From Bacilli bacterium (GTDB taxonomy: Bacteria; Bacillota_I; Bacilli_A; RFN20; CAG-826): a DNA stretch of 64,000 nt. The DNA lies in contig JAGAHY010000140.1 in the NCBI GenBank assembly GCA_017626815.1, positions 404 to 64,403 of the forward strand, given 5' to 3'. The position numbers and the translations under genes were made by a program. This document shows, piece after piece, positions 5,548 to 63,924 of this stretch. Each line of letters begins with the position of its first letter. The stretch's first letter is position 1. The notes beneath the pieces are model-generated. The model saw nothing but the letters and a program-made list of their open reading frames with translations, was not told where the DNA came from and ran no database searches.

Positions 5548-6000
5548 ATAAACTCCTTTCGTTTATTCAGGTACATTTTCTGAGCGGGTTTTTGATAGTC
5601 GGTCAAGAATGAATGTTTGCGACAATTAATTTGTTGATTTGCCAAAGGGAAGAGGCCAAATTGTTCGCTTAATTTTCCCTTCATCAATAAAGAGCCGCTT
5701 TCACTAGTTAAGACAATCGAATTGTGGGAAATGTCTAAAAGAATTCTAGCAGCACACCAAACCGCGGTTTAATTCTCTCGGCAATTCCTGGTTAATTTGG
5801 CATCCGTGAGCAACAAATGCCTCGGCAGGCGCTCATTTTTCGGATATTTCTCGTCCTGCCTTTTTATGCGGAAGAGGTAAGCGAACCAGTTCAGATAGCC
5901 CTGGAGATACTCATCCGTCCTCGTGCCTGTGAATCTGGAGAGGAAGCGCTTGACCCATGAAGAGAACGAGCTTATCAGCTGCATAGCCCTAAGCGATTCC

Positions 6001-6579
6001 TCATCCTTCACCGTCGATCTGCCCGGAGCGGTAGACGCCCGTAGTTTCATTATAGGCGATGATGGCTTTCGCTTTGGCCCCGCCGGTGGAGGAGCCGATC
6101 TTGATGAGGTCGCGTAGCTTTCCGATTTCCGGCATGATTTCGGATTCGCTTCGCCTTTTGAGTACGTCTTTTGCCGCATTCGCGATATCCTCGATGCGAA
6201 TTTCGGTCGATTCGTCTAAAGACCCATCAAGATGGGGATAGTATTCTAGGGCGCCCATGCCGCGTTTGCCGATGCAAAGAAGTTTCTCAATCGGGGTGAG
6301 CGAGTTCTTGTCCCTGCCGATGGAAATGAGGTATTCGTTGATGGCCTTTCTGCCGAATTTGTCGGGGGACGAATCCGCGAATAGGCCTGGCAGTGTGCGG
6401 TAGGTTTCGCTGGTCAGACGTGGAAAGGAGTAGGACTCTCTACGCAGAGGCAACATAATGGGCGAAATCTCGATTCCGCGCGCGATGAAAGATGGGTCGT
6501 AGGTGAAATAGACGTTGTTCTCTTCGTCGTTGGCTAGATAACCAACGAGGGTGCCCCAAAGCTTGACCTCCGCGATCAT
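6001..6579 (-). pseudogene. hipA: hipA paralog retaining only the N-terminal ~190 aa; the kinase domain is replaced by unrelated sequence
   Basis: About 90% nt identity to 2209-2655. The frame continues through the position that is a stop in copy 1 (…GMGALEYYPHLDG…) but ends at …SGQIDGEG with no kinase domain. Confidence 0.65.
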
Positions 6580-7189: not shown

Positions 7190-7256
7190 TAATCGCCCAA
7201 AAAATTTGTTTTTGGCCACCCGTTGCTCAATGATATGGAACGTTTGGAGGATGCTT

Positions 7257-32010: not shown

Positions 32011-32072
32011 ATGACGCGGATAATTTGCGAATAGACGCCTTCGCACGGATGATTAAGGCGAAAGGAACGACA

Positions 32073-34265: not shown

Positions 34266-34268
34266 GCG

Positions 34269-38405: not shown

Positions 38406-38675
38406 GTGAAAGAAGAATTATTACAAGGCTTAACCGAAGAGCAAATCGCTAAGGTTAAGGCATGCAAGAACCAAGAAGAAATTTTGGCGGTGGCTAAAAA
38501 GGAAGGCATAGAGCTCACTGAAGAGCAACTCGAAGCCGTTAATGGAGGCTGTGGAACGCCGACCGTCGTCCCTTGTCCTAGGTGCAAATCGACGAATGTC
38601 TATTATTGCGGACAGAATCTATGCTCCGAAAAAGAGTATAAATGTAACGAGTGCGATTATCGGTTTTGGCGGTAA
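38406..38675 (+). CDS. RiPP-type precursor peptide P1: Nif11-like leader ending in GG, plus a Cys-rich zinc-ribbon-like core
   Basis: GTG start after an AAGGAG RBS; the ORF-track TTG start at 38397 is upstream of it. Leader MKEELLQGLTEEQIAKVKACKNQEEILAVAKKEGIELTEEQLEAVNGG. Core CGTPTVVPCPRCKSTNVYYCGQNLCSEKEYKCNECDYRFWR. Confidence 0.7.
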   Translation: MKEELLQGLTEEQIAKVKACKNQEEILAVAKKEGIELTEEQLEAVNGGCGTPTVVPCPRCKSTNVYYCGQNLCSEKEYKCNECDYRFWR

Positions 38676-38680
38676 TAACG

Positions 38681-38743
38681 ATAAAAGAAGAATTGTTACA
38701 AGGCTTAACCGAAGAACAACTAGAAGCTGCTTCGGGCGGATAG
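38681..38743 (+). pseudogene. Leader-only stub (I)KEELLQGLTEEQLEAASGG*, an internally deleted duplicate of the P1 leader with no core
   Basis: Starts 6 nt after the P1 stop. Looks like a deletion between the two TEEQ-encoding repeats of a leader. Confidence 0.45.
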
Positions 38744-40991: not shown

Positions 40992-41621
40992 TTAACCGAT
41001 TGGGGTGTAATAGACGGTTCCGAGCGCGAAAGATGAGGAATCACCAAAGCTGATGGTTATCGTTTTTTCGCTCGATTCCTCAAGAGGAAAGGAAATCGAG
41101 AACGGAGTTTTTTGGCTCAAGTATGAAGCTTCGCCTCGATATTCGCCCAGCTCGAAAGAGAGAACCCCGAATTCGAATGAGCCAAATGGGTTTTCAGTGA
41201 AGCGGACGCAGCAGACATAGTTGCCCTCCTTCCCAAAAAGCAAGGCAGTAGACGGGGCGTCGTTTCTTTTCTCCGTCACTTCGAGAGTGGAAAGGGAAAA
41301 GTCAATGCTTGGATCCGAACAGACCCATCGGCTGGCGGCAAATGTGCCATATAGAACGGGCCTTTGGCCGCCCTCCCCATAGTAACTTGGCTCATTCGAA
41401 AAATTGATCGCTAAAGGTATGACGATGGCCGCTGTGACGCAAACCGCCAAACCGGCGATGGCCATTGGGACCAGGATGCGACGTCTCCGTGGTGAGGGGC
41501 GGCCGTTTTGCGCGACGGTATCCCAATCGACGCCTTTGGTGACGCTTTCAAAGGAAGGCGGCTCTGGCGTCAGGGCGTCCGCGGCCTCGAAAACGCGCCT
41601 CTCGGTTCTATTCCTTTTCAT
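40992..41621 (-). CDS. Putative membrane anti-sigma factor (single TM)
   Basis: 209 aa. Overlaps the upstream ECF sigma gene. TM ILVPMAIAGLAVCVTAAIVIPLAI. Assignment by context. Confidence 0.5.
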   Translation of the reverse strand: MKRNRTERRVFEAADALTPEPPSFESVTKGVDWDTVAQNGRPSPRRRRILVPMAIAGLAVCVTAAIVIPLAINFSNEPSYYGEGGQRPVLYGTFAASRWVCSDPSIDFSLSTLEVTEKRNDAPSTALLFGKEGNYVCCVRFTENPFGSFEFGVLSFELGEYRGEASYLSQKTPFSISFPLEESSEKTITISFGDSSSFALGTVYYTPIG

Positions 41622-42174
41622 CCCTGAGCCTCCTCCTTAGTTCCTTAATGGCCTTTCTGTAGCGGTAGCACACTGCGTCCTCCCCCATTCCCAGCCTTTC
41701 GGCGATTTCCTTTTGGGTATAGTCATAGGCTGCCTTTAAGATCACGATGTCCGAGTCGGGGTGCCCGAGCCAGGCCTCGATTTTAGCGAACAATTCCCTG
41801 CCTTGGAGCAAATCCGGAATGCTTTGCCCCTGGTCCGCGGTCTCGCTCTCGTCGTCCATTTGGTCCAAACGCCGCTGTTTTTCCTTCCTGTGTCCGCAAA
41901 TGTACTTGGCGCTTTGGACCCAATAGTCCGCGACGCGGTCCACGGTCAGGAGCCTTTGCGGGTCTTTGAGCAGCCCGAGGAAGGATTCCTGGATGTCGTC
42001 GTCGGTTTCGCCATCCTTCCCAAACGAATCGATGAGGACGCGGTACACGAGGCGGACGTTGTCCTCGTATAGGCGCTCGAACGCCTTGGCAATCCTCGCG
42101 CCGTTTCCGCTTTTTATGGCCCTTTTCAGTTCTCTTTCCGCGTCCATTTCGGGGAAATTTTGGGCCTTCGTCAA
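41608..42174 (-). CDS. ECF-type RNA polymerase sigma factor, divergent from the radical-SAM maturase gene
   Basis: 188 aa. Region 2 and region 4 HTH (YTQKEIAERLGMGEDAVCYRYRKAIKELRRRL). Confidence 0.8.
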   Translation of the reverse strand: MTKAQNFPEMDAERELKRAIKSGNGARIAKAFERLYEDNVRLVYRVLIDSFGKDGETDDDIQESFLGLLKDPQRLLTVDRVADYWVQSAKYICGHRKEKQRRLDQMDDESETADQGQSIPDLLQGRELFAKIEAWLGHPDSDIVILKAAYDYTQKEIAERLGMGEDAVCYRYRKAIKELRRRLRDEKE

Positions 42175-42284: not shown

Positions 42285-43628
42285 ATGAACATGCTGAAAT
42301 TTCGGGCGTTAGGCAAAACGGTATACTACGACGAAAGATCCACTTTCTTTTCTTTGGATGAGCCTAGGCAAGAAGAGGTCCAATCCTTCCCGCCTATCCC
42401 ACCAATCGAAGAGCTGATTGCCGCGTCGAAGCCGACCGCCTACACGTTCTGCGTCGACGTGTCCGATTCCTGTAACCTACGCTGCGATTACTGCTTCAAC
42501 GAAACGAAAACGGGCAAAACGATCGATGCTGCAACAGCGATTTCCTATTTGGAGGCGATGTTTCATAAATACGACTCCGGCGAAAAGTACTTCGTCGACA
42601 TGTCCGGCAAGGGCGAGCCGTTGCTCGCGTTGAAAACAGTTTTGGAGATAGCGAGGTGGTGCAGGAGAAAACAGGACGAAATCCGGAAAGAGGTTCTGCC
42701 GCAGTTCGTCTGCAACGGGACGATGCTGTCCCCTTTGGTGGCGGAGGTTCTCCAAAACGAAGGGATTCTATTTGGGGTCAGCCTGGATGGAAACAAGCAA
42801 GTTCACGATTCGCATAGGAGGGACGCGAACGGAAATCCCACATTCGACGCGATTATCGACAACGTCAAATCGATACGCTTTCGGAACTACGTCGGTTGCG
42901 CAGCCACCCTTACCAAGGACGTGTTTCCGCTCGTCGAAGCGATAGATTCGCTGCTGCCGATATTCAAGACGATCAGCTTTCGGCCGGCTCGCGGCGCGTA
43001 TGCCTTCGACGATTCTTCCGGAAAACTTTGGGAAGACCAATACGAGCGATTGGGGTTTCGGCTGTTGAAAGACATCGAACGGGGAGACGCGTCTATTTTC
43101 CTCGCCCTAATGAACGGCGAAGACTATTTTGGGAGATACCTGGTTCGGGCAATAGGCTTCAAACGAACAATCGCCCGTTGCGACGCTTCGATATCCCGCT
43201 TCGCTTTGGATATCGACGGCAAGATATATCCATGCCCGGCTTGTTGCGAAGCAGGATTGGACGTCCGTTCCTTTGTCGACGGAGGATTATCCGCTGAGTT
43301 TTCAATCGAGGCCCAAGCCAAAAGCTGCCTGGGATGCAACATAAAGTACTTCTGCGGAGGCGAATGTCCCATTAATGCAACGCACGCTCTTGGGAACGAA
43401 GACGCCCTTTGCCGTTTCCGGAGAAAACTGATAACGATTGCCATGGTTTTGAGCGAAACATTGCGAACAACAAATACAAAACTCTACGATTCATTGACGG
43501 TGTTTTGCGATGAAAAAATCCTCAGGCAAAAAGCCAATCCAAAGTTGGCCGTCTTTTTGAATGCGCATCGCAACATGTCTTTTACGAAAGCAAAAGCAGC
43601 ATTCGATAAAGAATACCCAAGCTATTAA
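42285..43628 (+). CDS. Radical SAM/SPASM-domain peptide-modifying enzyme (maturase 1)
   Basis: 447 aa. CNLRCDYC (CxxxCxxC). C-terminal SPASM cysteine cluster CPACCEAG…CLGCNIKYFCGGECP…C. Confidence 0.85.
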   Translation: MNMLKFRALGKTVYYDERSTFFSLDEPRQEEVQSFPPIPPIEELIAASKPTAYTFCVDVSDSCNLRCDYCFNETKTGKTIDAATAISYLEAMFHKYDSGEKYFVDMSGKGEPLLALKTVLEIARWCRRKQDEIRKEVLPQFVCNGTMLSPLVAEVLQNEGILFGVSLDGNKQVHDSHRRDANGNPTFDAIIDNVKSIRFRNYVGCAATLTKDVFPLVEAIDSLLPIFKTISFRPARGAYAFDDSSGKLWEDQYERLGFRLLKDIERGDASIFLALMNGEDYFGRYLVRAIGFKRTIARCDASISRFALDIDGKIYPCPACCEAGLDVRSFVDGGLSAEFSIEAQAKSCLGCNIKYFCGGECPINATHALGNEDALCRFRRKLITIAMVLSETLRTTNTKLYDSLTVFCDEKILRQKANPKLAVFLNAHRNMSFTKAKAAFDKEYPSY

Positions 43629-50116: not shown

Positions 50117-50413
50117 ATGAAAGAAGAGTTATTTAAAGCCCTAAGCGAAGAGCAAATGGCTAAATTAAAAGATTGTAATAATGTTGAAGAATTACTCGCT
50201 CTTGCTAAACAAGAAGGCATTGAACTTACTGATGATCAACTCGAAGCTGTCAATGGCGGTTGTGGTACTACTACAGGGTATTGGGGATGCCCTTACTGTG
50301 GTTATCGTTGGGGCGCCGAGAGTATAGGGTACCCCCGCCTTAGATGCTTTGGCTGTGGCCGTGAATATAACGCCAATGATAGAAAATATTTTCAAATCAA
50401 TAAGAATAAATAA
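50117..50413 (+). CDS. RiPP-type precursor peptide P2 (Nif11-like leader, GG, zinc-ribbon-like core)
   Basis: Leader MKEELFKALSEEQMAKLKDCNNVEELLALAKQEGIELTDDQLEAVNGG. Core CGTTTGYWGCPYCGYRWGAESIGYPRLRCFGCGREYNANDRKYFQINKNK. Confidence 0.7.
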   Translation: MKEELFKALSEEQMAKLKDCNNVEELLALAKQEGIELTDDQLEAVNGGCGTTTGYWGCPYCGYRWGAESIGYPRLRCFGCGREYNANDRKYFQINKNK

Positions 50414-50484
50414 TTCGTCAAAAAGATACCTATATAAGCAATAGATATGCTTGCTAAATGATAATGATCGGAGTGAACAACTAT

Positions 50485-50751
50485 ATGAGAGATGAATTAT
50501 TAAAAGGCTTAACCGAAGAGCAAATAAAGAAATTAAAAGAATGCAAAACACAAGAAGAAATCATAAGTCTCGCGAAAGAGGAAGGCGTTGAATTAACTGA
50601 TGAACAATTAGCGTCCATCTCTGGCGGAGGATGCAGAGGTGGCAGATGTCCTAAATGCGGTAGCGATTATACTTGCTGCTACGGTATTGGCAAATATGAA
50701 TGTAGTAAATGCCAATATCACTGGGGAGAGGATGAATACATCCCAAATTAA
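50485..50751 (+). CDS. RiPP-type precursor peptide P3
   Basis: Start at MRDELLKGL; the ORF-track start at 50458 is upstream of it. Leader …LTEEQIKKLKECKTQEEIISLAKEEGVELTDEQLASISGGG. Core CRGGRCPKCGSDYTCCYGIGKYECSKCQYHWGEDEYIPN. Confidence 0.7.
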   Translation: MRDELLKGLTEEQIKKLKECKTQEEIISLAKEEGVELTDEQLASISGGGCRGGRCPKCGSDYTCCYGIGKYECSKCQYHWGEDEYIPN

Positions 50752-53292: not shown

Positions 53293-53508
53293 CTACAACC
53301 CATTGTGCCCGTAACTCAGGCATTCGTATTCCTTCACCCAATCGGCTCTTGGGATGCGACACGTATTGGCGCTTTGACAATGGGGGCATGGAGGGAGTTA
53401 GGCCTGGCAATTGCCACCAGAGACGGCCTCCAGTTGATCGTCGTTAAGCTCGACACCTTCTTCTTTGGCGACCATCAAGATTTCTTCCTGGCTTTTGTTT
53501 GGTTTGCT
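53293..53508 (-). pseudogene. Decayed precursor-peptide paralog P5 (…SKPNKSQEEILMVAKEEGVELNDDQLEAVSGGNCQA*LPPCPHCQSANTCRIP…)
   Basis: Leader second half plus GG plus a CPxC core, with an in-frame TAA after the first core residues. The first half of the leader is missing. Confidence 0.5.
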
Positions 53509-53737: not shown

Positions 53738-54013
53738 TCAGGATATGACGCCTTTGGCCCTTCTGAATTTATGGCCGCAGTGGGGGCAGGTGTAGTTGTA
53801 ATAATCGTCGCAGCTGCTGCCGTCGATTTTTTGCCCGCAGTTGGGGCAATCGATGTCGTTGAGGCAGTTGCCGCCGGAGACGGCTTCTAATTGCTCGCTA
53901 GTAAGCTCGACGCCTTCTTCCTTTGCAATTCTGAGGAGTTCATCCTGATTATTGCAGGCTTTGACTTTCGCGATTTGTTCTTGGGTCAGCCCATGTAGTA
54001 ATTCTTCTTTCAT
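53738..54013 (-). CDS. RiPP-type precursor peptide P4
   Basis: Leader MKEELLHGLTQEQIAKVKACNNQDELLRIAKEEGVELTSEQLEAVSGG. Core NCLNDIDCPNCGQKIDGSSCDDYYNYTCPHCGHKFRRAKGVIS. AAGGAG RBS 8 nt upstream. Confidence 0.7.
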   Translation of the reverse strand: MKEELLHGLTQEQIAKVKACNNQDELLRIAKEEGVELTSEQLEAVSGGNCLNDIDCPNCGQKIDGSSCDDYYNYTCPHCGHKFRRAKGVIS

Positions 54014-54064: not shown

Positions 54065-54472
54065 TCAAATTTTCTTCTTCAGCGTCAGGATGTTTTTATT
54101 GTCTACGCGGCAATAAGTGGTCTCGTCCATGACGTTTTTGACGATGAAGATACCAAGCCCGCCGATTTGGCGGCTTTCTGCGGGAAGAGCAATATTGGGG
54201 TCTTCTTTCGCTAAGGGATCAAACGCTTTGCCGCTATCGGCGATGATGATCGTCAAAAGACGGGTTTCCTCATCGAAGTCATAATCGATTTCGATGTCAC
54301 CCGTGCCCGGTTCATAGGCATAGGAAGCGATGTTGGTATAGAGCTCGTCTAGGGCCAACTCGATCTTGTTGAGCAACTTAAAGTCGGCGTCGTGGTCTTC
54401 CAGCAGGGCAATGATGGGCTCGATGCCTTTGGCGATGACTTTTTTATCCGCGGGAATGACGATATGTTTCAT
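54065..54472 (-). CDS. RsbW/SpoIIAB-like anti-sigma factor / serine kinase (HATPase_c)
   Basis: 135 aa. G-box GGLGIFIVKNVMDE. 4-nt overlap with the upstream phosphatase gene. Confidence 0.7.
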   Translation of the reverse strand: MKHIVIPADKKVIAKGIEPIIALLEDHDADFKLLNKIELALDELYTNIASYAYEPGTGDIEIDYDFDEETRLLTIIIADSGKAFDPLAKEDPNIALPAESRQIGGLGIFIVKNVMDETTYCRVDNKNILTLKKKI

Positions 54473-56016
54473 TGTTCTTCACACCCCCTGTATTCCAAGC
54501 ACAGCATCGTGATGTCGTCGAATTGGTCGTTGGTTCCCATAAAGACCTTTAATTCGTCCAACATGCTTTTGCAAATGACTTCCGGAGTTTCATATTCGTA
54601 TCTTTGCAAGGCTTTTAAGGCGCGTTCTAGCTGATATTGGCCGTCGTTACCGACGCATTCTGGGACACCGTCGGTATATACAAAGACCTTGGAGCCCTTT
54701 TCTAATTGGATTTGGTATTCGCGGTAAGGGACCCCATCCATAAAGCCGACGACCAAGTCGTGTTTATCTTTATAGATCTCGAAATTGGCGCCCGCCCCTT
54801 TGATGATCGGATATTCGTGGCCGCCATTCGCGGCGGTTAATAGGCCGGTTTTTAAGTCTAACGTGGCAAACCACACCGTGACGAAGAGACGGTGCTGATG
54901 GTTGGCGCATAGCTGTTTGTTTGCTTTATAGAGGACTTCTTTCGGCGAAAGCCCCATCATGGCGTAGTTTTGCAGGATGATTTTGCTTTGCATCATGAAC
55001 AAAGCGGAAGGGACGCCCTTATCGGAGACGTCGGCGATGACGATGCCGAGGTGGTCTTTGTCGATGAGAAAGAAGTCGTAGAAGTCACCGCCGACTTCTT
55101 TGGCGGGGTGCGTCAGCGCATAGATATCGAATTCTTTATGGTCGGGGAAGGCCGGGAATTTGTTGGGCAAGGCGTCCATTTGGATGCTGGTGGCGAGATT
55201 TAGTTCTTTGCTTTTGGAATAGAGGAGTTTTTCGTTGTCGTAGGACAGCAAAGAATAAACCAGCACCAAGGCGATCATCATGCCAGGATAGGAGACGGAG
55301 AGGCCTTCTTCTCCCCAAGCGGCGAGAAGGCCAAACACGGGGATGCCAAGGAAGACGACGACGACGATCTTGTTGCGCAACTTCTGCTTGGAGATGAATA
55401 ACGAGACAATCGCAACGATGAAAATCAGCGTCATATAGATGTCGCCGATCCAATAGGTCTCGGAAGCGACGGGGAATCCGGTTTCGAGATCGATGGTGAA
55501 ATAGAGGGGGTAGAAGAAATTGACGAACGACAGAAGGGCGAAAATCACGCCCAAGGCAAACAGGATGATATCTAAGACGGCAGCGACTTTCCTTTTGGTG
55601 CTTAGCGTGTGGGAGATGTAGAGCCAATAGCCGAAGCCGAACACTATTTCCGCGAGGTACACCAAGATGACCATGATGCGGCTTAGGGTGGCCAGGCCGT
55701 TTCCGGCAATGCACATCTTTGAGATGTCCACAAAGCACAAGAAGCAACCTATGGTCAGCAAGATGACGAACATTTCGACGCGAACGCCTTGCCTTTTATA
55801 AGCGGGAAGGAGGGTGGCGACGATGACGATCGCGATCATGATAGTGACGATCTCCGCGCCGATGGAAAAACCGAAGTTCGCTTCGGTGTAGTCAAAGATT
55901 TCAATGATGGCGACGGCCCCGACCAAGAACGCGCACATTAAGCCGAACATGACGGGAATCAGCCATGGTCTTTTGCTGATTGCTTCAACAGTATTATTTT
56001 GTTTTTCCATAACCAA
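54469..56016 (-). CDS. Membrane-bound PP2C-type serine phosphatase (RsbU/SpoIIE family) with an N-terminal ~8-TM sensor region
   Basis: 515 aa. PPM motifs GGDFYDF, IADVSDKGVPSALFM, YTDGVPE, DDITML. Confidence 0.8.
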   Translation of the reverse strand: MVMEKQNNTVEAISKRPWLIPVMFGLMCAFLVGAVAIIEIFDYTEANFGFSIGAEIVTIMIAIVIVATLLPAYKRQGVRVEMFVILLTIGCFLCFVDISKMCIAGNGLATLSRIMVILVYLAEIVFGFGYWLYISHTLSTKRKVAAVLDIILFALGVIFALLSFVNFFYPLYFTIDLETGFPVASETYWIGDIYMTLIFIVAIVSLFISKQKLRNKIVVVVFLGIPVFGLLAAWGEEGLSVSYPGMMIALVLVYSLLSYDNEKLLYSKSKELNLATSIQMDALPNKFPAFPDHKEFDIYALTHPAKEVGGDFYDFFLIDKDHLGIVIADVSDKGVPSALFMMQSKIILQNYAMMGLSPKEVLYKANKQLCANHQHRLFVTVWFATLDLKTGLLTAANGGHEYPIIKGAGANFEIYKDKHDLVVGFMDGVPYREYQIQLEKGSKVFVYTDGVPECVGNDGQYQLERALKALQRYEYETPEVICKSMLDELKVFMGTNDQFDDITMLCLEYRGCEEQ

Positions 56017-56165: not shown

Positions 56166-57341
56166 ATGACGGACAAAGAGACCCTCACCTTGATGTGGAA
56201 GGACTACGAAGTGCTTTCCTTCGAGGTGAATTACGAAAAATATGGCCTTCAGTTCTTGGAAGAGAAAGAGCATTTTGATAAAGCCCCCTATGACTTGGCA
56301 AAGGCAAAAGACAAACGCCTTGGCCTACTTCGCTTTTTCGGCAGTAGGGCGATTCCCTCCATGCGCAGCGGTTTCCAAGCCATCATGGATGCGACGCATT
56401 GCCGCAATGAATTGGAACTATCGTTTAAAGGGCATGGGCTCTCCCTCTCCAGTCATTATTGGATCAAACGGGAAGGGGAGAATCTCCGCTATGAGGACAT
56501 CAATTTTTTTACCCACCAATGGGATGATTCTTTCGGCAGGGCTCTCCTGCGCGGTGACTATGAGGCGCTAGGGGGATGCGATTTCAATGTCCCTGACATC
56601 ACCACCCCGGGATGGGGAAACAAAGGCTGGCTCTATGAAGACGGGCCTAAGCTTTATAAGCGCGGCTTAGATCCCGAGCATTCCGAAGAGGCGATATGTG
56701 AAGTCTTAGCGTCAAGCATCGCGAGCAGGATCATCCCTGGCGGCGAAGTCCTTCCCTACGAACTAAGGAAATTCGACGGGAAGTATGTTTCGGTTTCTTC
56801 CTGTTTCCTCGGAATGGACGAGGAATTGGTCCCCTTATCTTCTATTTTGTCCGCGGAGTTATCGGAGCTTTATCGGGAAAAGGCCAGGAACAAAGACCTG
56901 AATAAAGAATTTTTCGATAAGCTCGCCCAAACTGGCTACGCCGAGTGGTCGACGTTCTTCGTCAAGGTGGCGTGCTTACGTTCCCTGTGCTTTGTTTCCG
57001 ATTTGCATTTTGGCAACCTCTCCGCGATCCAAAACATGGAGACCGGAGCATTAAGGCTCGCCCCGATTTACGATTTCGGCGGCGCCTTTGGCTCTTCGGC
57101 GAAAGGGAGGCAATTCCTTGCTAACGCGAATAAAGCGGCCTTCTTGCTCATCTATTTCGTGTATGGGGACCTCAATCCCGATTGGGATTATTCGTGGTAT
57201 GATCCCAATCGGCTCATCGGCGCGGAAGAGGAGATCCGGGACTATTTATCCAAAACAGGTTTTTATACGCCAGAGTACATCGACTGTGCTCTTGACATCT
57301 TCAGGCGGCAGAAGAAAATGTTGGATGAAATGAAAAAATAA
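56166..57341 (+). CDS. Protein with a HipA_C-like kinase-fold signature (…SDLHFGNLSAI…LAPIYDFG…), function unknown
   Basis: 391 aa. The D-x-H-x-x-N-L-S and LAPxYD motifs resemble the HipA catalytic and Mg-binding loops. Ends 13 nt before radical-SAM maturase 2. Confidence 0.4.
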   Translation: MTDKETLTLMWKDYEVLSFEVNYEKYGLQFLEEKEHFDKAPYDLAKAKDKRLGLLRFFGSRAIPSMRSGFQAIMDATHCRNELELSFKGHGLSLSSHYWIKREGENLRYEDINFFTHQWDDSFGRALLRGDYEALGGCDFNVPDITTPGWGNKGWLYEDGPKLYKRGLDPEHSEEAICEVLASSIASRIIPGGEVLPYELRKFDGKYVSVSSCFLGMDEELVPLSSILSAELSELYREKARNKDLNKEFFDKLAQTGYAEWSTFFVKVACLRSLCFVSDLHFGNLSAIQNMETGALRLAPIYDFGGAFGSSAKGRQFLANANKAAFLLIYFVYGDLNPDWDYSWYDPNRLIGAEEEIRDYLSKTGFYTPEYIDCALDIFRRQKKMLDEMKK

Positions 57342-57353
57342 TGGAGTTTTGCT

Positions 57354-58748
57354 ATGTATTATCGATTAAAAGACACTATTGCATTACGAAAATGGAGATA
57401 CGTTGAACGCGCCGTATACCGCAAGGGCGTGGAGAACGCCTTCGGTGTGACCGAAGCGGAATTCGAGCTTTTGCAGCAGTGCGATGGGGAAACGGACATC
57501 GAGCCCAATCCTTACTTGGCTGGCTTGCTCGACCGCCAGCTCATCGAGCCTTGCGAAAAGGGCCAGAAGGCGAATCCGTGGTCCTTGCTCCATACCTATG
57601 ATAATTATTACTTCCCGAAGATGAACCTTATGATCACCGGGAAATGCAACTTGAATTGCCTCCATTGTTTTAACGCGAAAGACAACGCCCCCTTAAATAC
57701 GGAACTTTCCTATGAGCAGGTGCTGAATATCCTCGATCAGGCCCGCGATATCGGCGTGCACGCGTTCACGATCACCGGTGGCGAGCCGCTGGTGCACAAA
57801 CGCTTCCTCGATATCGTCCGCGCCATCTATGAAAGAGATATGTTCATCTTCGAATTGAACACAAATGGCTTGCTCATCACCCAGGAGATGCTGGATGTCT
57901 TTAAGGAACTAGGGTGCTACCCGCTAATCAAGATTTCTTTCGATGGCGTCGGCTACCATAACTGGATCCGCCAGCATCCTAAGGCGGAAGAGCTTACCCT
58001 TAAAGCCATCGAACTTTGCATCAAAAACGGCTTTGCGGTGAAGGCGCAAGTCCAAGTGAACCGTAAAAACGTCGATTCCATGGAAAAGACCGCGAGGCTT
58101 TTAAACGACATGGGCGTCACGGAGATGCGCATCATCCGCACCACGGAAGCGCCCCGCTGGGAAAAGAATTCGCCCAATTCTTCGTTGACGATCGAGGAAT
58201 ATTTCGAGCAAATGACGGCTTTTGCCAAGAATTATATGCAAAGTGATATGACCATGACTATCGACATTTGGCAGTTGATGAGACTTTATCCATCCGCGAA
58301 AACGTATGATCTCGTCCCCATCGCCTGCGACAAGGACGAATTTAATATCCGCATCCCCATGTGCAAAGGAAACCGTGGCATGATCGCGATTTCTTCGAGT
58401 GGAGAAGCGGTGCCCTGCTTGCAAATGTCAGGCTGGTTCCTCGAACGGGGAATCAGTCTTGGAAACGTCTTGAAAACCCCGTTAAAAGAGCTGGTCACCA
58501 AAAGCGATTACCTCAACCTCGCGATGGCGACGTTGCTGAAGCAAATCCTCGAAAACGATAAGTGTGGCAACTGCAAATACTATAAGGCCTGCACGGGTGG
58601 TTGCCCCGCCTTAGGATTGCTCTATTCCAAAAACGGTGATTATTATCATGAAGATGTGACAAAATGTGCTTTCTTTGAAAATGGCTGGTATGATTTAATA
58701 GTAAAAGAATTGGCGTCTTGGCGCCTATTGAAACCCCTCAACATCTGA
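57354..58748 (+). CDS. Radical SAM/SPASM-domain peptide-modifying enzyme (maturase 2)
   Basis: 464 aa. CNLNCLHC. SPASM cluster CGNCKYYKACTGGCP…C. Confidence 0.85.
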   Translation: MYYRLKDTIALRKWRYVERAVYRKGVENAFGVTEAEFELLQQCDGETDIEPNPYLAGLLDRQLIEPCEKGQKANPWSLLHTYDNYYFPKMNLMITGKCNLNCLHCFNAKDNAPLNTELSYEQVLNILDQARDIGVHAFTITGGEPLVHKRFLDIVRAIYERDMFIFELNTNGLLITQEMLDVFKELGCYPLIKISFDGVGYHNWIRQHPKAEELTLKAIELCIKNGFAVKAQVQVNRKNVDSMEKTARLLNDMGVTEMRIIRTTEAPRWEKNSPNSSLTIEEYFEQMTAFAKNYMQSDMTMTIDIWQLMRLYPSAKTYDLVPIACDKDEFNIRIPMCKGNRGMIAISSSGEAVPCLQMSGWFLERGISLGNVLKTPLKELVTKSDYLNLAMATLLKQILENDKCGNCKYYKACTGGCPALGLLYSKNGDYYHEDVTKCAFFENGWYDLIVKELASWRLLKPLNI

Positions 58749-58800
58749 TGGCTGACTTATTGGCATAAAACGCCGAAAACGCCATCAACCCCATTGCCCG

Positions 58801-59190
58801 ATGAAAAAAGAAAACGTCACTATCTCTAGCCCTGATGAGCTAAACGCGCATCTGCAGTCTTCCTCTCCTATTACCTGGATTGCTTTAGGCACGGTTATCG
58901 CCCTCATCCTTGGACTGTTTGTTTGGTCCGGTGTTTACGAACTCCCGATTATGATTTCAGGCGCCGCCTCCGTCACCAACGGCATCGCCAGTTTGACCGT
59001 GGAAGAACGGGCGAAGGATAAACTCGAGGCGGGTCAAAAAATCTACATTTTGGACAAGGACGGGTATCTCTCTTTTGACGAAGAAAACAACCCCGTTGTC
59101 TTAAACATAGATCTCAGCGACGGGCAATACACCTATCGCACGGATACCGAGCTTGAAAAGATTCGACCCATCCAATATTTATTCAGGTAA
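58801..59190 (+). CDS. Small single-TM protein (possible short membrane-fusion/accessory component of the exporter)
   Basis: 129 aa. TM ITWIALGTVIALILGLFVW. Immediately precedes the C39-ABC gene. Confidence 0.4.
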   Translation: MKKENVTISSPDELNAHLQSSSPITWIALGTVIALILGLFVWSGVYELPIMISGAASVTNGIASLTVEERAKDKLEAGQKIYILDKDGYLSFDEENNPVVLNIDLSDGQYTYRTDTELEKIRPIQYLFR

Positions 59191-59194
59191 CACC

Positions 59195-61372
59195 ATGAAA
59201 AAGAAGGAAATCAAGAAACCGACAAGCGGCAGGAAGGTCGCGGATGTCCCGATCATCATGCAGTTGGAGGCCCTCGAATGCGGGGCCGCCTCTTTAAGCA
59301 TGGTCATGGCCTATTACGAAAAATGGGTCGCTTTGGAGCAGGTTCGCGTCGATTGCGGCGTCTCCCGTAATGGTTCTAACGCGAAAAATATCTGCCGCGC
59401 CGCCGAGAAATACGGCTTTAAGGCCAAAGGCTATGCCTATAACATTCAGAAATTGAAGGAAAGGGGCAAATTCCCCGCGATTATCCACTGGGGCGGCGGT
59501 CACTTCGTCGTCTTGGATGGCATTCGTGGCAACAAAGCCATCATCAACGACCCCGCGAAAGGGTTGGTCAAAGTCGATTTGAAGACTTTTGACAAGATTT
59601 TCACCGGCATCTACATCGAAATCGTTCCCGGCGAGAATTTCGAACCCGGCGGCAAGAAAAAATCCATCTTCGCCTTCGCTAAAAAGAGGCTTAAAGGCGC
59701 GGTTGCCTTGATTACTTTCTTCGCGATCACCACGATCGTGTTCTATCTGTTCACGATTATCAATCCGGCGTTAAACCAAGTATTCGTCGACCGACTGTTG
59801 GGCGGCAATAATCCGAATTGGCTGATTCCATTCATCGGCATTTTCGGTGGCCTTGGCTTGCTTCAGGTCATCGTCACGGCCGTCCAAACCCTCTATGAAT
59901 ATAAGATTAGGGGCAAATTGGACCTTATTGGTTCGACCACCTACATGTGGAAGATTTTAAGGCTCCCCATCGACTTCTTCTCCCAGCGCATGGTCGGCGA
60001 CTTACAATCGCGCCAGAGCGAAAACGCCTCCATCGCCGAAACGTTGGTCAACGTCTTCGCGCCGCTGCTTTTCAATTCCATCATGCTCATCGTCTATTTG
60101 GCGGTCATGATCAGCAAGAGCGCGTGGCTGGCCTTAGTCGGCGTCATCACCGTTCTCATCAACATCTTCGTCTCCCAATACATTTCCAAGGTCCGCGTCA
60201 ATATCTCCAGGGTCCAGGCCCGCGATAATTCGCGTCTTGGCGCGATGACTTCCAAGGGCATCGAGATGATCGAAACCATCAAGTCTAACGGTGCGGAAAC
60301 CTCCTATTTCTCGTCCTGGCAAGAAGCCGCCGACAGCGTCTACGCCCAAAACGTGAAGATGGCCAAAACCAATCAGTTTATCGGCCTCGTTCCGGCGCTT
60401 GTGTCGATGATTGCCAACTATTCCGTCTTGATTCTCGGCGTTTATTTCACGATTAACGGCAGTTTCACCGTCGGTTCTATTTTGGCTTTCCAGGGTCTAT
60501 TAAGCGCCTTTATGTCGCCGGCGATGACCATTATCTCCAGCGGACAGACGTTGCAGGAGATGCGCACCCAGATGGAACGTGTCGACGACGTTTTGGAATA
60601 CCCTCTTGATTCTAACGTCACCCGCGAAATCGAGATGGAGCACGTCTCCAAAATCAAAGGCAACCTGATCCTTAGAGATCTCACCTTTGGTTATTCTCGA
60701 TTGGGCCGCCCGGTCTTATCGAATTTCAATCTCGAGATCAAACAGGGCCAGAAGGTCGCCATCGTCGGTTCCACCGGCAGCGGCAAATCCACGATTTCCA
60801 AATTGATCTCCGGGCTTTACGCGCCATGGTCTGGCGAGATTATCTTCGATGGAAAGCGGATTGAAGAAATCGACCATGAAATCTTCACTTCCTCGATCGC
60901 CGTCGTCGATCAGGACATCACCCTCTACGAAGACACGATCATGAACAACTTGAAGATGTGGGACCAGTCCATCACCGACATGGAAGTCAAAATGGCCTGT
61001 ATTGATGCCCAAATCCACAAGACCATCGCCGCGAGGGAAGGCGGTTATAATGCCCCCGTCCTCGAGAACGGCAAAAACTTCTCCGGTGGCGAGAAGCAAC
61101 GTTTAGAAATCGCGCGTTCCTTGGCGATGGACCCGAGCATCATCATCCTCGATGAAGCCACCAGCGCCCTCGATGCCAAAACGGAATTTGACGTCGTTAA
61201 TGCCATCAAAGAACGCGGTATTACCACGATTGTCATCGCGCATAGACTTTCCACGATCCGCGACGCCGATTTGATCGTCGTCCTCGATCATGGCCATATT
61301 GTCGAGCAGGGCAACCATGACACCTTAATGGCCCTGAAAGGCGCTTATTACGATTTGGTGACGAACGAATAG
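59195..61372 (+). CDS. Bacteriocin-type ABC exporter with an N-terminal C39 double-glycine peptidase domain
   Basis: Start MKKKEIKK; the ORF-track start at 59153 is upstream of it. C39 Cys in QLEALECGAASLSMV and His in HFVVL. 6-TM domain. GSTGSGKST, FSGGEKQR, IIILDEATSALD. Confidence 0.85.
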   Translation: MKKKEIKKPTSGRKVADVPIIMQLEALECGAASLSMVMAYYEKWVALEQVRVDCGVSRNGSNAKNICRAAEKYGFKAKGYAYNIQKLKERGKFPAIIHWGGGHFVVLDGIRGNKAIINDPAKGLVKVDLKTFDKIFTGIYIEIVPGENFEPGGKKKSIFAFAKKRLKGAVALITFFAITTIVFYLFTIINPALNQVFVDRLLGGNNPNWLIPFIGIFGGLGLLQVIVTAVQTLYEYKIRGKLDLIGSTTYMWKILRLPIDFFSQRMVGDLQSRQSENASIAETLVNVFAPLLFNSIMLIVYLAVMISKSAWLALVGVITVLINIFVSQYISKVRVNISRVQARDNSRLGAMTSKGIEMIETIKSNGAETSYFSSWQEAADSVYAQNVKMAKTNQFIGLVPALVSMIANYSVLILGVYFTINGSFTVGSILAFQGLLSAFMSPAMTIISSGQTLQEMRTQMERVDDVLEYPLDSNVTREIEMEHVSKIKGNLILRDLTFGYSRLGRPVLSNFNLEIKQGQKVAIVGSTGSGKSTISKLISGLYAPWSGEIIFDGKRIEEIDHEIFTSSIAVVDQDITLYEDTIMNNLKMWDQSITDMEVKMACIDAQIHKTIAAREGGYNAPVLENGKNFSGGEKQRLEIARSLAMDPSIIILDEATSALDAKTEFDVVNAIKERGITTIVIAHRLSTIRDADLIVVLDHGHIVEQGNHDTLMALKGAYYDLVTNE

Positions 61373-61387
61373 AAAGAGAAACGGCAT

Positions 61388-63571
61388 ATGGGTTGGTTCG
61401 AAGAGCAAGTAAAGCAAAGAAAGAAACTCGATGCGAAGACGTTCGAGGATTCTTTTAAGTCGCTCGCCGGTATTCACGTCAAAAACCAGAAGAATCTTTC
61501 TGACGAAGAAATCCGAGAGAATTTCGCCATCTCGCAGATTCTTTCCTATTTTCATCATCAGATGGTGGATATCCCCGCCGGCGTCACGAAATTCAAAGAT
61601 AAACTTAACTACATCCTGGGCCATTTCGGCATCGAATATCATAACGTCCAACTTACCGACGCTTATGTGAATGAAAATGGCTCCCCGTTATTGATTTATA
61701 CCCTCATCGGGGAAATCCCCATCATTTTGTTCCCTGCCAAGGGCAATCAGTATTACTACATCCATTACGGAACCGGCAAGAAAACCTATATCGACGCGGC
61801 CATGATCCATGGTCTTGAAATTGATGCGATTAGTTTCTATCGCCCCCTTCCGAGCAAAGGCGTTTCTATTAAGGAATACGTGAAATATATCGGGAAGTCG
61901 ATAAGGCCCTTGGATATCGTTCTCCTCATCGTCTTTGCCGCGCTTTCCTCTGGCGTTGGCCTTTTGGTGCCTTACCTCACCCAAAGATTAACGGGTGAAG
62001 TGGTGCTCAATAAAGACATTAGCCTATTCATCGCGGTCTCGCTTTATGTCGTCGCGGCCGCGACTGGCGTATTGCTGGTTAAGGCGGTTCAGGCTTTCGT
62101 CAACACGCGGATTATGTTGAAAATTCAAAAATCCGTGCAGGAAGCGACGATGATGAGGGTTTTGAACCTTCCGGCTGCCTTCTTTAAGAAATACAATACC
62201 GGTGAATTGACCGCTCGTTTCTCCAGCGTCAATAGCTTGGCGAGCATGATTGTCAACGGCATCTTCACGACCCTCGTTTCGGTGGTCATGTCCCTCGCTT
62301 ATTTATTCCAACTCGCCGGCTTTGCGTCTACGCTAGTCCCCATTGTTGTGGCGATCTTGTTTGCGACCACGGCCTTCAGCGTTGCCATCGCCTTGATTCA
62401 GAAGAAATATACCCGACAGACCCTTGAGCTATCTTCCAAGGAGTCCGGCGTCACCTATGAAATGATCAACGGCATCCAAAAGATTAGGCTATCCGGCTCG
62501 GAAAAGCGCGTCTTCGCCAAGTGGGCGAGCGCCTATGCCCGTTCCGCGGAGGTGAGATACCATCCTCCTCTGATTTTGCGTTTATCCCCTGCAATTTCCC
62601 TATTAATTACATTACTTGGTAACGTCGCTATCTACTATGTGGCCGCTAGAAGTGGTCTCTCGGCTGGTAGCTACATGGCTTTCGTCACCGGCTATGGCGT
62701 CCTTTCCGGCGCCTTCGCCTCCGTGACTTCCATGGTCGGCGTCATCACCTCGATTAAGCCGACTTACGACATGGCTAAGCCCATCTTAGAGGCCGAGCCG
62801 GAGACCGCTCAGAACAAACTCGTCTTGGAAAAGGTCAAAGGTAACATCCGCTTCGAAAACGTCTCCTTCAAATACATCGAAAATGGACCGCTTATCCTAA
62901 ACGACCTCTCCCTCGATATCAAAGAAGGCGAATATGTCGCGATTGTCGGCCAAACTGGATGCGGCAAATCCACCCTAATCCGCGTGCTTCTCGGGTTCGA
63001 AGAGCCCTTAAGCGGGCGCGTGACGGTGGATGGCCATGACGTCAAAGACCTTGACCCCTCGTCGCTTCGTAGGCGCATCGGCACGGTCCTTCAAAACGGT
63101 ACGCTTTTCCACGCGGATATCTTCTCCAACATCATCATTTCTTGCCCCAACGCAAGCGAAGAAGATGCCTGGGCCGCGGCGGAAATCGCCGATATCGCCG
63201 ACGACATCAGAGAGATGCCGATGGGCATGAAGACGGTCATCTCGGAAGGCCAAGGCGGCATTTCCGGCGGCCAGAAGCAGCGCATCATGATCGCCCGCGC
63301 CATTGTCCATCACCCCAAGATCTTGATCTTCGATGAGGCCACCAGTGCCCTCGACAATAAGACGCAAAAGAGCATCACCGAATCCATCAACAAGCTCAAT
63401 TGCACCCGACTTGTCATCGCGCACAGGCTTTCCACGATTAAAAACGCGGATAGAATTATCATGCTCGAAGGCGGTAAGATTATCGAAGAAGGCAGCTACG
63501 ATTCCTTGATTGCCCAAAAAGGCAAATTCGCGGAACTGGTCGAGAGACAGCGCCTGGATAACAACGAATAA
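61388..63571 (+). CDS. Second ABC exporter subunit with an N-terminal peptidase-like domain lacking the catalytic Cys
   Basis: 727 aa. GQTGCGKST, ISGGQKQR, ILIFDEATSALD. The N-terminal ~150 aa are C39-like in size but carry no Cys/His pair. Confidence 0.8.
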   Translation: MGWFEEQVKQRKKLDAKTFEDSFKSLAGIHVKNQKNLSDEEIRENFAISQILSYFHHQMVDIPAGVTKFKDKLNYILGHFGIEYHNVQLTDAYVNENGSPLLIYTLIGEIPIILFPAKGNQYYYIHYGTGKKTYIDAAMIHGLEIDAISFYRPLPSKGVSIKEYVKYIGKSIRPLDIVLLIVFAALSSGVGLLVPYLTQRLTGEVVLNKDISLFIAVSLYVVAAATGVLLVKAVQAFVNTRIMLKIQKSVQEATMMRVLNLPAAFFKKYNTGELTARFSSVNSLASMIVNGIFTTLVSVVMSLAYLFQLAGFASTLVPIVVAILFATTAFSVAIALIQKKYTRQTLELSSKESGVTYEMINGIQKIRLSGSEKRVFAKWASAYARSAEVRYHPPLILRLSPAISLLITLLGNVAIYYVAARSGLSAGSYMAFVTGYGVLSGAFASVTSMVGVITSIKPTYDMAKPILEAEPETAQNKLVLEKVKGNIRFENVSFKYIENGPLILNDLSLDIKEGEYVAIVGQTGCGKSTLIRVLLGFEEPLSGRVTVDGHDVKDLDPSSLRRRIGTVLQNGTLFHADIFSNIIISCPNASEEDAWAAAEIADIADDIREMPMGMKTVISEGQGGISGGQKQRIMIARAIVHHPKILIFDEATSALDNKTQKSITESINKLNCTRLVIAHRLSTIKNADRIIMLEGGKIIEEGSYDSLIAQKGKFAELVERQRLDNNE

Positions 63572-63586
63572 AAAGGAGGATTACTC

Positions 63587-63880
63587 ATGGAACACAAACT
63601 TAATAATGGAACGCTGACCATTTTCCTGAAAGGGAAGATCAATTCCAGCAACTCAGAAGAAGCCGAACAGGAAATCAACCGCATCATTGCGGATAATTCC
63701 TTCACCAGTCTCGTCTTCGACCTTGGCGAGCTCGTTTATATCTCCTCTGCGGGATTAAGGATCCTCCTCGGGGTCAAACAAGAACACGATGACACCAAGC
63801 TGGTCAATGTCTCCGACGCCATCTACGAAATCCTCGTTATGGTCGGCTTTGATAGCGTCCTTACCATTGAAAGACAATAG
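63587..63880 (+). CDS. STAS-domain anti-sigma-factor antagonist (SpoIIAA/RsbV-like)
   Basis: 97 aa. Conserved phosphorylatable region …LVYISSAGLRILL. Confidence 0.75.
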   Translation: MEHKLNNGTLTIFLKGKINSSNSEEAEQEINRIIADNSFTSLVFDLGELVYISSAGLRILLGVKQEHDDTKLVNVSDAIYEILVMVGFDSVLTIERQ

Positions 63881-63899: not shown

Positions 63900-63924
63900 G
63901 CGCGGTTATTTGGCCGCGCTTTTT
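63900..63924 (+). terminator. Intrinsic terminator (gcgcgg-ttatttgg-ccgcgc plus TTTTT)
   Basis: Perfect 6-bp GC stem, 8-nt loop, 5-T run. Confidence 0.6.

Follow-up and report, generated by a model that had tools for sequence, protein, structure and literature searches.

Why would a kinase resembling the toxin HipA stand at the head of an operon for the maturation and export of peptides? The question is raised by 64,000 nucleotides from a Bacilli bacterium (assembly GCA_017626815.1, contig JAGAHY010000140.1, positions 404 to 64,403 of the forward strand), here called the window, in which an open reading frame (ORF) for 391 amino acids begins with ATG at position 56166 and ends at 57341 on the plus strand. 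A first-pass annotation, made from the DNA alone, had described catalytic and Mg-binding motifs in this ORF, and both are present, with SDLHFGNLSAIQNMETGALRLAPIYDFG at residues 278-305. Some gene callers choose M10 (56193) as the start, which gives 382 residues, and the identical protein in public data, derived from a metagenome-assembled genome (MAG), is called 'hypothetical protein [Bacilli bacterium]'. As modelled, the protein is a full-length member of the HipA fold, predicted to be catalytically competent, in which a HipA-like N-terminal domain is joined to the kinase core. The most constant partner of the kinase across related loci is a gene for a Nif11-type double-glycine precursor peptide and not the radical S-adenosylmethionine (radical SAM) maturase that follows it in the window.

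Curated sequence models do not capture this protein. Pfam HipA_C reaches it with an E-value of 0.02 and 15 bits (cutoff 30.5) and covers residues 259-304 only, the Pfam scan gave no match to Couple_hipA, and the best NCBIfam model, YjjJ, gives E 0.07 and 11.8 bits (cutoff 401), so that the protein stays below all NCBIfam cutoffs. As these single-protein matches are sub-threshold, they do not by themselves support membership of the HipA family. HipA_C is reached by 35 of 43 family members, again below threshold (best E 1.6e-5), and a profile of the family searched against the PDB found only CtkA (E 0.012). When the family profile was compared by hhalign with the canonical HipA_C ORF of the window, the catalytic and Mg loops alone were aligned (E=0.026, probability 1.9%), and the probability for the Couple_hipA ORF was 0.1%. 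Sequence profiles therefore cannot bridge to canonical HipA, and it is the structure that carries the relationship of the N-terminal domain.

The structure searches gave a different picture. An AlphaFold2 model built from 43 homologues (predicted local distance difference test score, pLDDT, 91.9; predicted template modelling score, pTM, 0.91) has as its best Foldseek match in the PDB the HipA of S. oneidensis (4pu5, E 5.8e-8). At least seven HipA entries are matched with a probability of 1.00, E-values of 5.8e-8 to 1e-5 and TMq of 0.52-0.58 over 456-490 columns (root-mean-square deviation about 8 Å), among them the E. coli structures 3tpt, 2wiu and 3hzi at full length (TMq 0.55-0.58, 456-480 columns). 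As the alignment extends over 456-490 columns, both the N-terminal domain and the kinase core are matched. HipA is followed in the list by CtkA (3akk, E 4e-7), a HipBST-type kinase, CotH and PI3K/PI4K. Bridges by sequence exist as well: the PADLOC model PDC-M03A matches the kinase core (E 4.6e-7, residues 149-317), tblastn finds plasmid genes with E 1e-11 to 4e-21, and the Campylobacter genes found in this way (E 7e-8 to 3e-11) are annotated as 'HipA family kinase' or 'HipA domain-containing protein'. The assignment as a HipA-fold kinase follows from the model and its structural matches, these bridges and the conserved phosphotransfer residues taken together, and very probably the ORF encodes an active HipA-fold phosphotransferase that lies outside every curated sequence model. 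The first-pass annotation had expected a kinase-fold match, which was obtained. The published phylogeny of Hip kinases defines them by four motifs (PMC8262856). The protein has the Gly-rich loop (by position and fold), the D-x-H-x-x-N loop, the Mg-binding Asp and the HipA-type fold including the N-subdomain of the Hip superfamily; what it lacks is membership in the curated models Pfam HipA_C and Couple_hipA and NCBIfam HipA.

The residues needed for phosphotransfer were followed through two sets of sequences, A1 with 43 homologues and A2 with 20 sequences of 22-44% identity; invariance refers to A1 unless stated. The most conserved stretch, NFFTHQWDDS (56502-56531; consensus FFxNKWDDS), lies in the HipA-like N-terminal domain, with F114, F115, W119, D120 and D121 invariant, and was used to scan for further loci. 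It is followed by a Gly-rich, P-loop-like segment, TTPGWGNKGW (residues 146-155, 56601-56630), in which G149, W150, K153 and W155 are invariant and T147, beside the loop, is nearly so. In HipA and HipT the autophosphorylated Ser lies beside the Gly-rich loop (PMC8262856), a position to which T147 would correspond. Further on, a strand with the sequence PKLYKRG carrying K165 and a helix carrying E179 (56646-56714; residues 161-167 and 174-189 of the model) probably provide the ATP-anchoring Lys-Glu pair, both residues being invariant.

The catalytic loop itself, S-D279-L-H281-F-G-N284-L-S (56997-57023), has the D-x-H-x-x-N pattern and can be aligned by its conserved positions with CtkA and with the DDHSKN of the canonical HipA in the window, and the Mg-binding motif A-P-I-Y-D303-F-G (57060-57080), with its invariant Asp, aligns with D179 of CtkA and the SPAYD of the canonical copy. 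In the profile alignment, D279, H281, N284 and D303 fall on D155, H157, N160 and D179 of CtkA, whose loop reads DRHNGN. A second signature, WDYSWYDP (57183-57206), in the C-terminal helical region, has D341, Y342, S343 and W344 invariant, with the Asp and Trp invariant also in A2; it marks the peptide-associated subclade and served as the other scan pattern. Throughout A1, G149, K153, K165, E179, D279, H281, N284 and D303 are all invariant; in A2, G149, K153, D279, N284 and D303 are invariant and K165, E179 and H281 are kept in at least 90% of sequences. Orthologues from Coriobacteriia and Ruminococcus keep the same phosphotransfer residues. The catalytic Asp and Asn, on whose conservation the first-pass annotation had staked its case, thus persist together with the Mg Asp in homologues down to 22% identity.

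Chance occurrence of such motifs must be considered in a window of this size. The loose pattern D.H..N.{10,30}D occurs three times where 0.85 are expected, which is the chance level, and the two-part pattern D.H..N.{10,30}[AS]P.[YF]D is found only in the kinase ORF and in the canonical HipA_C ORF at 1478-2353 on the minus strand, with no occurrence in 200 shuffles. That the kinase is unlike the canonical HipA copies of the window, as had been claimed, is borne out by HipA_C, which matches it with E=0.02 and the ORF at 1478-2353(-) with 1e-49, while the ORF at 6001-6579(-) is a Couple_hipA match (E=1e-17). Both canonical copies (1478-2677(-) and 5769-6579(-)) seem to be split or degraded: in the first, an in-frame stop separates the N-terminal part from the HipA_C part (...GMGALEY*PHLDGS...), leaving the HipA_C ORF at 1478-2353, and the second consists of the Couple_hipA N-domain alone at 6001-6579, followed by an ORF of 136 aa without a family match.

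If the protein is a kinase, its neighbours may tell what it acts on. The close family comprises 291 clusters at 90% identity, all of them unnamed, and an exhaustive profile search returned 2,288 representatives at E<=1e-3, of which 108 are at E<=1e-30. The gene neighbourhood was surveyed in 45 loci from rumen Bacilli/Erysipelotrichaceae, MAGs labelled Lachnospiraceae, Ruminococcus and Coriobacteriia, most of them on MAG or metagenome contigs, so that a gene may seem absent because the contig is short. Of 38 loci, 34 have a gene for a Nif11-type double-glycine precursor within 10 kb of the kinase and 24 have one within 700 bp, and a hidden Markov model (HMM) of the leader adds one more adjacent peptide in the Ruminococcus locus L045. 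The orthologous radical SAM gene follows the kinase directly in 22 of the 37 loci with enough sequence, and an exporter of the C39-peptidase ATP-binding cassette (ABC) type follows in 21 of 34. It is on these counts that the precursor gene, and not the radical SAM gene, is the most constant partner.

The pairing holds over large evolutionary distances. Ruminococcus loci retain the whole gene set with a radical SAM protein 55% and a kinase 31% identical to those of the window. In the Coriobacteriia-type loci L040, L046 and L049/L050, the sole conserved neighbour of the kinase is a peptide of 68-88 aa with a Nif11 leader. These two-gene units lie amid housekeeping genes (pta and IMPDH in L040, NUDIX and GH77 in L046, NrdG/NrdD in L049/L050) and have no radical SAM, exporter or partner-switching genes nearby. 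The context resembling that of a ribosomally synthesised and post-translationally modified peptide (RiPP), which the first-pass annotation had seen in the window, is thus conserved across Bacilli, Ruminococcus and Coriobacteriia. Depending on the locus, the peptide gene is downstream, upstream or divergent of the kinase, and such variable position and orientation fit an enzyme-substrate cluster better than a toxin-antitoxin operon. A neighbour-joining tree gives the ancestral order in Bacilli as kinase, short precursor, radical SAM, HlyD-like protein and ABC exporter; on the branch of the window (with L018, L004, L001/2 and L006), the short precursor between kinase and radical SAM gene was lost and the kinase stayed intact.

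Beyond the close subclade, the surroundings are of another kind. The wider family includes fusions to the helix-turn-helix (HTH) domain HTH_17 (P0139, P0160) that resemble YjjJ/HipH as well as one AbiQ/ToxN fusion, N-terminal extensions that look HTH-like by sequence occur in 13 of its 77 metagenome loci, and some copies reside on plasmids and phage contigs. Distant gut relatives (25-30% identity) gave no Nif11 pairing; 6 of 86 extra loci were paired and all six belong to the close subclade. No HipB, HipS or HTH gene or domain was found by Pfam in the kinase protein and its flanking ORFs, nor across the 45 loci.

Some further features of individual loci may be recorded here. Two MAGs carry two paralogous kinases each (L021/L028 in RUG266, L022/L025 in SRR8387716_bin.60); in both, one copy is followed by a short precursor and the radical SAM gene and the other directly by the HlyD-like gene and ABC exporter without a radical SAM gene, which hints at sub-functionalisation. 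The cluster of L001 is flanked by CotH-family genes (1-1775 and 19398-21185), a family with an atypical kinase fold that also appears among the Foldseek matches; this is probably a coincidence.

The peptides encoded beside the kinase belong to two classes with conserved leaders (...LAKEEGVELTDEQLEAVSGG) and hypervariable cores, and up to 9 of them accompany one kinase. Short precursors have 57-88 aa and cores of 9-27 residues, of which ACSDSTEDSKKDHKRYDK is an example and which usually contain a single Cys. Long precursors have 85-118 aa and cores with usually five Cys, one near the N-terminus and four in a zinc-ribbon-like CPxCG...CxxCG unit. Of the long cores 47 of 50, and of the short ones 24 of 31, have their first Cys at position 1-2. 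Over the six positions that follow this Cys, the Ser/Thr fraction is 0.29-0.34 as against 0.11-0.12 in the rest of the core, a purely descriptive count, as the cores are related and not independent. In most Bacilli loci (L003 11247-11432, L005 11228-11428, L007 11254-11448 and about 20 others), a short precursor lies between the kinase and the radical SAM gene, with a core of about 13-22 aa in which a single Cys at position 1-2 is followed by an acidic middle part rich in Ser/Thr and by a basic tail that ends in (K/R)(I/F)(D/E)(S/D). As these short peptides are very hydrophilic and unlike a typical bacteriocin, they may be signals.

Four long precursors and two remnants make up the stock of the window. 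ORF and family searches identified a precursor at 53738-54013(-) with a Nif11-type leader ending ...EAVSGG and the core NCLNDIDCPNCG...CPHCG, another at 50117-50413(+) with a leader ending ...EAVNGG and the core CGTTTGYWGCPYCG...CFGCG, and a third at 50458-50751(+) with ...ASISGG and GCRGGRCPKCGS...CSKC. The fourth was found by a search of the window at 38406-38675(+), where a GTG start after AAGGAG leads to the core CGTPTVVPCPRC...CNEC. An intact precursor of the short class was sought in the window and not found; the remnants, at 53398-53508(-) and 38648-38743(+), are leader fragments ending in GG, one of them with a core of four residues, NCQA, and suggest gene turnover at this locus. The long precursors of the window and of L001-L045, which combine a Nif11-type leader, an extra N-terminal Cys and a zinc-ribbon-like core with four Cys, may constitute an undescribed family of secreted mini-proteins or RiPPs; a literature search combining Nif11, radical SAM and zinc ribbon found no paper.

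In the window, the kinase stands just upstream of the radical SAM gene and, further on, of the exporter with the double-glycine peptidase, as the first-pass annotation had reported. The kinase TAA, ending at 57341, and the ATG of the radical SAM gene are separated by the 12-nt spacer TGGAGTTTTGCT (57342-57353), which contains a GGAG ribosome-binding site and is without a terminator-like site. The radical SAM/SPASM peptide maturase (57354-58748(+), 464 aa; Radical_SAM E 2.5e-22, SPASM E 2.2e-6) has an N-terminal extension of about 90 aa that, from its sequence, is possibly a leader-recognition domain. It is below every NCBIfam equivalog cutoff and is therefore an unnamed radical SAM family in its own right. 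Its nearest solved structure is SkfB (6efn, E 6.6e-11), a Cys-to-C-alpha thioether synthase, and this closeness fits the conserved Cys of the peptide cores. The maturase is 82% identical to that of L001 and 55% to that of Ruminococcus L045, the corresponding values for the kinase being 57% and 31%; in these comparisons the maturase evolves far more slowly than the kinase.

The remaining genes of the operon provide for export. A short HlyD-like membrane protein (58801-59190(+), 129 aa) matches the N-terminus of TIGR03794 (E 2e-6); proteins of about 128-140 aa are found in this place at every locus, and as only the N-terminal 54 of the 421 positions of this HlyD model of NHLP systems are matched, they represent a conserved truncated adaptor. 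It is followed by the exporter with a C39 peptidase (NHLP-type ABC1, 59195-61372(+); Peptidase_C39 E 3e-32, TIGR03796 E 1.5e-246 and 820 bits; ATG at 59195 preferred over TTG at 59153), a second ABC permease/ATPase (NHLP-type ABC2, 61388-63571(+); TIGR03797 E 5.6e-198) and, as the last gene, a STAS-domain protein of the anti-sigma-antagonist type (63587-63880(+); PF01740 E 7.7e-13), whose position is conserved across loci. A scan of the plus strand found no terminator-like hairpin between the operon genes, and the only strong one on this strand, with a stem of 8 bp (6 GC) and a T-run, is at 63900-63919. The region 56166-63880 therefore reads as a single operon headed by the kinase.

Divergent from the kinase and upstream of it are a membrane-anchored SpoIIE/PP2C phosphatase (54469-56016(-), 515 aa; PF07228 E 1e-45 over residues 320-509), which is conserved near the cluster and begins with a hydrophobic region of roughly 300 aa, and an RsbW-like HATPase_c_2 protein of the Ser kinase/anti-sigma type (54065-54472(-), 135 aa; PF13581 E 3e-22). 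Together with the STAS protein, these form a full partner-switching set around the operon, without an adjacent sigma factor gene; the set is kept in other loci, sometimes with SpoIIE and HATPase fused. Within 2.5 kb upstream of the kinase, a SpoIIE-type gene occurs in 7 of 25 Bacilli loci and a response regulator in some others. In L008 (1684-2445), L010 (6785-7543), L025 (9167-9925) and L027 (9171-9932), this response regulator has 252 aa and lies immediately 5' of the kinase, and it is preceded by a protein of 420 aa with weak SpoIIE similarity. By sequence it has a receiver and a winged-helix-like C-terminus, and the cluster may have in it a regulator of its own.

What, then, is the substrate of the kinase? 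The reading to which we tentatively incline, plausible though somewhat short of probable, is that of a leader-guided tailoring kinase that phosphorylates Ser/Thr in the Cys-proximal segment of the core, after which the radical SAM maturase and the exporter complete maturation. The Nif11-type leader would be recognised by the kinase, which would use ATP to phosphorylate Ser/Thr in the stretch following the Cys at core position 1-2; the radical SAM enzyme would work on this N-terminal segment too, with a Cys thioether as the probable product, and the C39 exporter would cut after Gly-Gly and secrete the product. The enzyme belongs to an uncatalogued subclade, marked by FFxNKWDDS and WDYSWYDP and without a HipB or HTH partner, that would have been recruited into a RiPP or bacteriocin pathway.

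Several observations weigh against this reading. The link from kinase to peptide is one of guilt by association, and it is also by association that tailoring is favoured among tailoring, immunity and regulation. No lyase or cyclase partner is evident. L015, L016, L024, L028, L038 and L042 are among the loci that yielded no precursor in the available DNA, even with the leader HMM, and the branch of the window kept its kinase after losing the short precursor. In two of the four window cores (CRGGRCP, CLNDIDC), none of the six residues that follow the first Cys is Ser or Thr, and the relatedness of the cores limits the Ser/Thr enrichment to a description. For the modelled structure, the large deviation in the Foldseek superpositions indicates a domain arrangement unlike that of HipA. 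Lastly, the members of the wider family (2,288 representatives) resemble kinases of toxin-antitoxin or defence systems, which have cellular proteins as their targets.

This last point leads to a rather unlikely alternative, that of a Hip kinase, toxin-like or physiological, whose substrate is a cellular protein, like GltX for HipA and TrpS for HipT. Such a kinase would slow growth or induce tolerance during production of the peptides or on encounter with them, or would be an addiction module for the locus, adjacency then being a matter of co-regulation and not of catalysis. The full-length HipA architecture, the near-invariant Thr147 at the place where HipA and HipT autophosphorylate, and the company of the wider family (YjjJ-like HTH fusions, the AbiQ/ToxN fusion, the match to a candidate defence kinase of PADLOC, plasmids and phage contigs) are what such a kinase would be expected to show, and its survival after the loss of the short precursor on the branch of the window can be counted on the same side. 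However, the subclade comes without HipB, HipS or any HTH gene or domain, the distant relatives that resemble toxin-antitoxin kinases are without Nif11 peptides so that the peptide link is specific to the subclade, and the kinase heads an operon for biosynthesis and export. Neither the variable position and orientation of the peptide gene nor cores that are hypervariable, as in secreted peptides, suit a toxin-antitoxin pair. The Nif11 peptide itself was considered as an antitoxin and judged unlikely in this role, given the changing gene order and orientation, the double-glycine export leader, the hypervariable cores and up to nine peptide genes per kinase.

The kinase could also serve immunity: in the manner of antibiotic kinases, it would phosphorylate the peptide within the producing cell, in its mature form or before export, and so inactivate it. 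It would then travel with the structural genes like the immunity genes of class II bacteriocins. An immunity gene adjoining the structural gene is the classic bacteriocin layout, and the tight adjacency in loci with neither exporter nor radical SAM gene nearby, as well as the intact catalytic residues, agree with it. Yet immunity is usually cognate and specific, and here one kinase accompanies many very different cores; the element common to the neighbouring peptides is the leader, which is removed on export; the short cores are highly hydrophilic, unlike membrane-active toxins; and we know of no precedent for kinase-based RiPP immunity. This makes the proposal decidedly improbable. An equally low probability is given to a regulatory kinase that feeds the partner-switching module by phosphorylating the STAS protein, the PP2C phosphatase or the exporter and so gates production or export. 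A Ser/Thr phosphatase beside a Ser/Thr kinase is a common regulatory pairing, and STAS, SpoIIE/PP2C and HATPase_c_2 genes accompany the cluster as conserved neighbours in Bacilli and, in part, in Ruminococcus; but the module has its own RsbW-like kinase, the SpoIIE-type gene is in the upstream interval in just 7 of 25 Bacilli loci, for which reason a kinase-PP2C pairing was rejected as a general rule, and the two-gene units of kinase and peptide are without partner-switching genes. A pseudokinase acting as a non-catalytic, leader-binding scaffold or chaperone, or an enzyme with another chemistry such as AMPylation or cyclisation, is very improbable indeed. RiPP proteins with a kinase fold and non-kinase roles do exist, for example the AviCys cyclases (PMC12291118), but the invariance of all canonical phosphotransfer residues over deep divergence would be unexpected for a pseudokinase.

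The tailoring reading itself has a more far-reaching version, argued from analogy and considered improbable. In this version, the kinase would be the class-defining enzyme of an undescribed RiPP family that reads the Nif11-type leader, phosphorylates Ser/Thr by the N-terminal Cys and promotes elimination of the phosphate, giving a small (methyl)lanthionine-like ring or a dehydro residue without any LanB, LanC or LanM homologue, while the SkfB-like radical SAM enzyme adds a second crosslink in Bacilli and Ruminococcus. If this were true, a toxin-antitoxin kinase lineage would be the evolutionary source of a peptide-maturation enzyme.

To our knowledge, the roles described for HipA-family kinases are confined to that of a growth-arresting toxin (persistence, HipBST, YjjJ) and, with CtkA, that of a secreted effector. 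A HipA-family kinase in a conserved peptide-pathway context is therefore new, and full-text literature searches, in which no paper connected HipA with RiPP, Nif11 or radical SAM systems, bear out the impression of the first-pass annotation that the pairing is uncharacterised. A subclade without an antitoxin or HTH partner that is fixed beside secreted-peptide precursors in three bacterial classes would be a new functional context for the HipA family. If the kinase phosphorylates peptides, it would add a new enzyme lineage to RiPP chemistry, and WDYSWYDP and FFxNKWDDS in combination with a Nif11 leader would offer a genome-mining handle for a large unstudied peptide family of the rumen and gut, including the zinc-ribbon-like cores. 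If it is toxin-like or regulatory instead, growth control would be tied to the production or export of peptides, which is likewise undescribed.

Elsewhere in the window, a second radical SAM gene (42285-43628, 'maturase 1') adjoins a divergent sigma-70 region-4 protein (41608-42174(-)) and is followed by a protein of 291 aa without family matches and an ABC protein of 977 aa; this region may be a second peptide system. Two paralogous pairs lie at 7206-11416 and 32025-36296. The first member of each is an ABC ATPase fused to an HTH domain (738 and 746 aa), an uncommon arrangement, and the second combines an ABC ATPase and an FtsX-type permease (687 and 675 aa).

Among known systems, HipA of E. 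coli K-12 and S. oneidensis is the best structural match over the N-terminal domain and the kinase core, and it shares with the window kinase the Gly-rich loop with a Ser/Thr beside it, the D-x-H-x-x-N loop and the xPxYD Mg motif. The two differ in that identity is only 10-15%, and in that the window kinase has no HipB or HTH gene, heads a peptide maturation and export operon and carries motifs of its own, FFxNKWDDS and WDYSWYDP. Direct relatives within the wider family are the HTH-fused kinases of the HipH/YjjJ type and plasmid genes for 'HipA family kinase' proteins in Campylobacter, Helicobacter and Selenomonas (tblastn E to 4e-21, profile E to 1e-40). They are of the same length class and share the monocistronic, antitoxin-less organisation, but the HipH/YjjJ-type relatives have an N-terminal HTH and no Nif11 peptides, and no HTH domain occurs in the window kinase or next to it. 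The published Hip phylogeny was restricted to kinases that have a putative antitoxin gene next to them, as a rule one for a DNA-binding protein (PMC8262856), and the clade of the window kinase would therefore have been left out.

CtkA of H. pylori (JHP940), the sole match of the family profile in the PDB, has aligned catalytic residues and differs in lacking a HipA-type N-terminal domain (about 270 columns, TMq 0.4) and in being a secreted effector and no cluster enzyme. PDC-M03A of PADLOC is the best curated-profile match to the kinase core and is stronger for distant family members (to 5e-20); its members have about 280-300 aa with a kinase core only and come from a candidate phage-defence context, while the locus in the window has no defence-island features.

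On the side of peptide chemistry, the known RiPP kinases (LanKC/LanL of classes III and IV, LxmK of class V and those of lasso peptides and of the cyanobactins, DolG) come from other lineages, namely eukaryotic-like protein kinases, APH/phosphotransferases and HPr-kinase-like proteins. We know of none with a HipA fold and of none reported with Nif11/radical SAM/SPASM clusters; the cyanobactin paper does not mention HipA, and LxmKY was a very weak Foldseek match (rank 33, E 0.027). ProcM-type LanMs act on many Nif11-leader precursors. LanM dehydratases such as ProcM and CylM, with roughly 1,000 aa and a LanC-like cyclase domain, are far from the 391 aa of the window kinase, which has no LANC-like Pfam match and no LanM among its top 50 Foldseek matches in the PDB. 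Nevertheless, they are the closest mechanistic precedent, by an analogy of working and not of membership: at the level of motifs, to which the comparison is confined, the same pattern of D-x-H-x-x-N, Asp and Lys recurs, and the cores beside the window kinase contain Cys and Ser/Thr. Phosphorylation of peptide Ser/Thr, associated with a leader or a cluster, is an established RiPP modification (PMC12639078). CylM itself has a lipid-kinase-like fold with D347-x-H349-x-x-N352, D364 and K274, and it phosphorylates Ser/Thr of a leader-bearing peptide with the site of elimination adjacent (PMC4550811).

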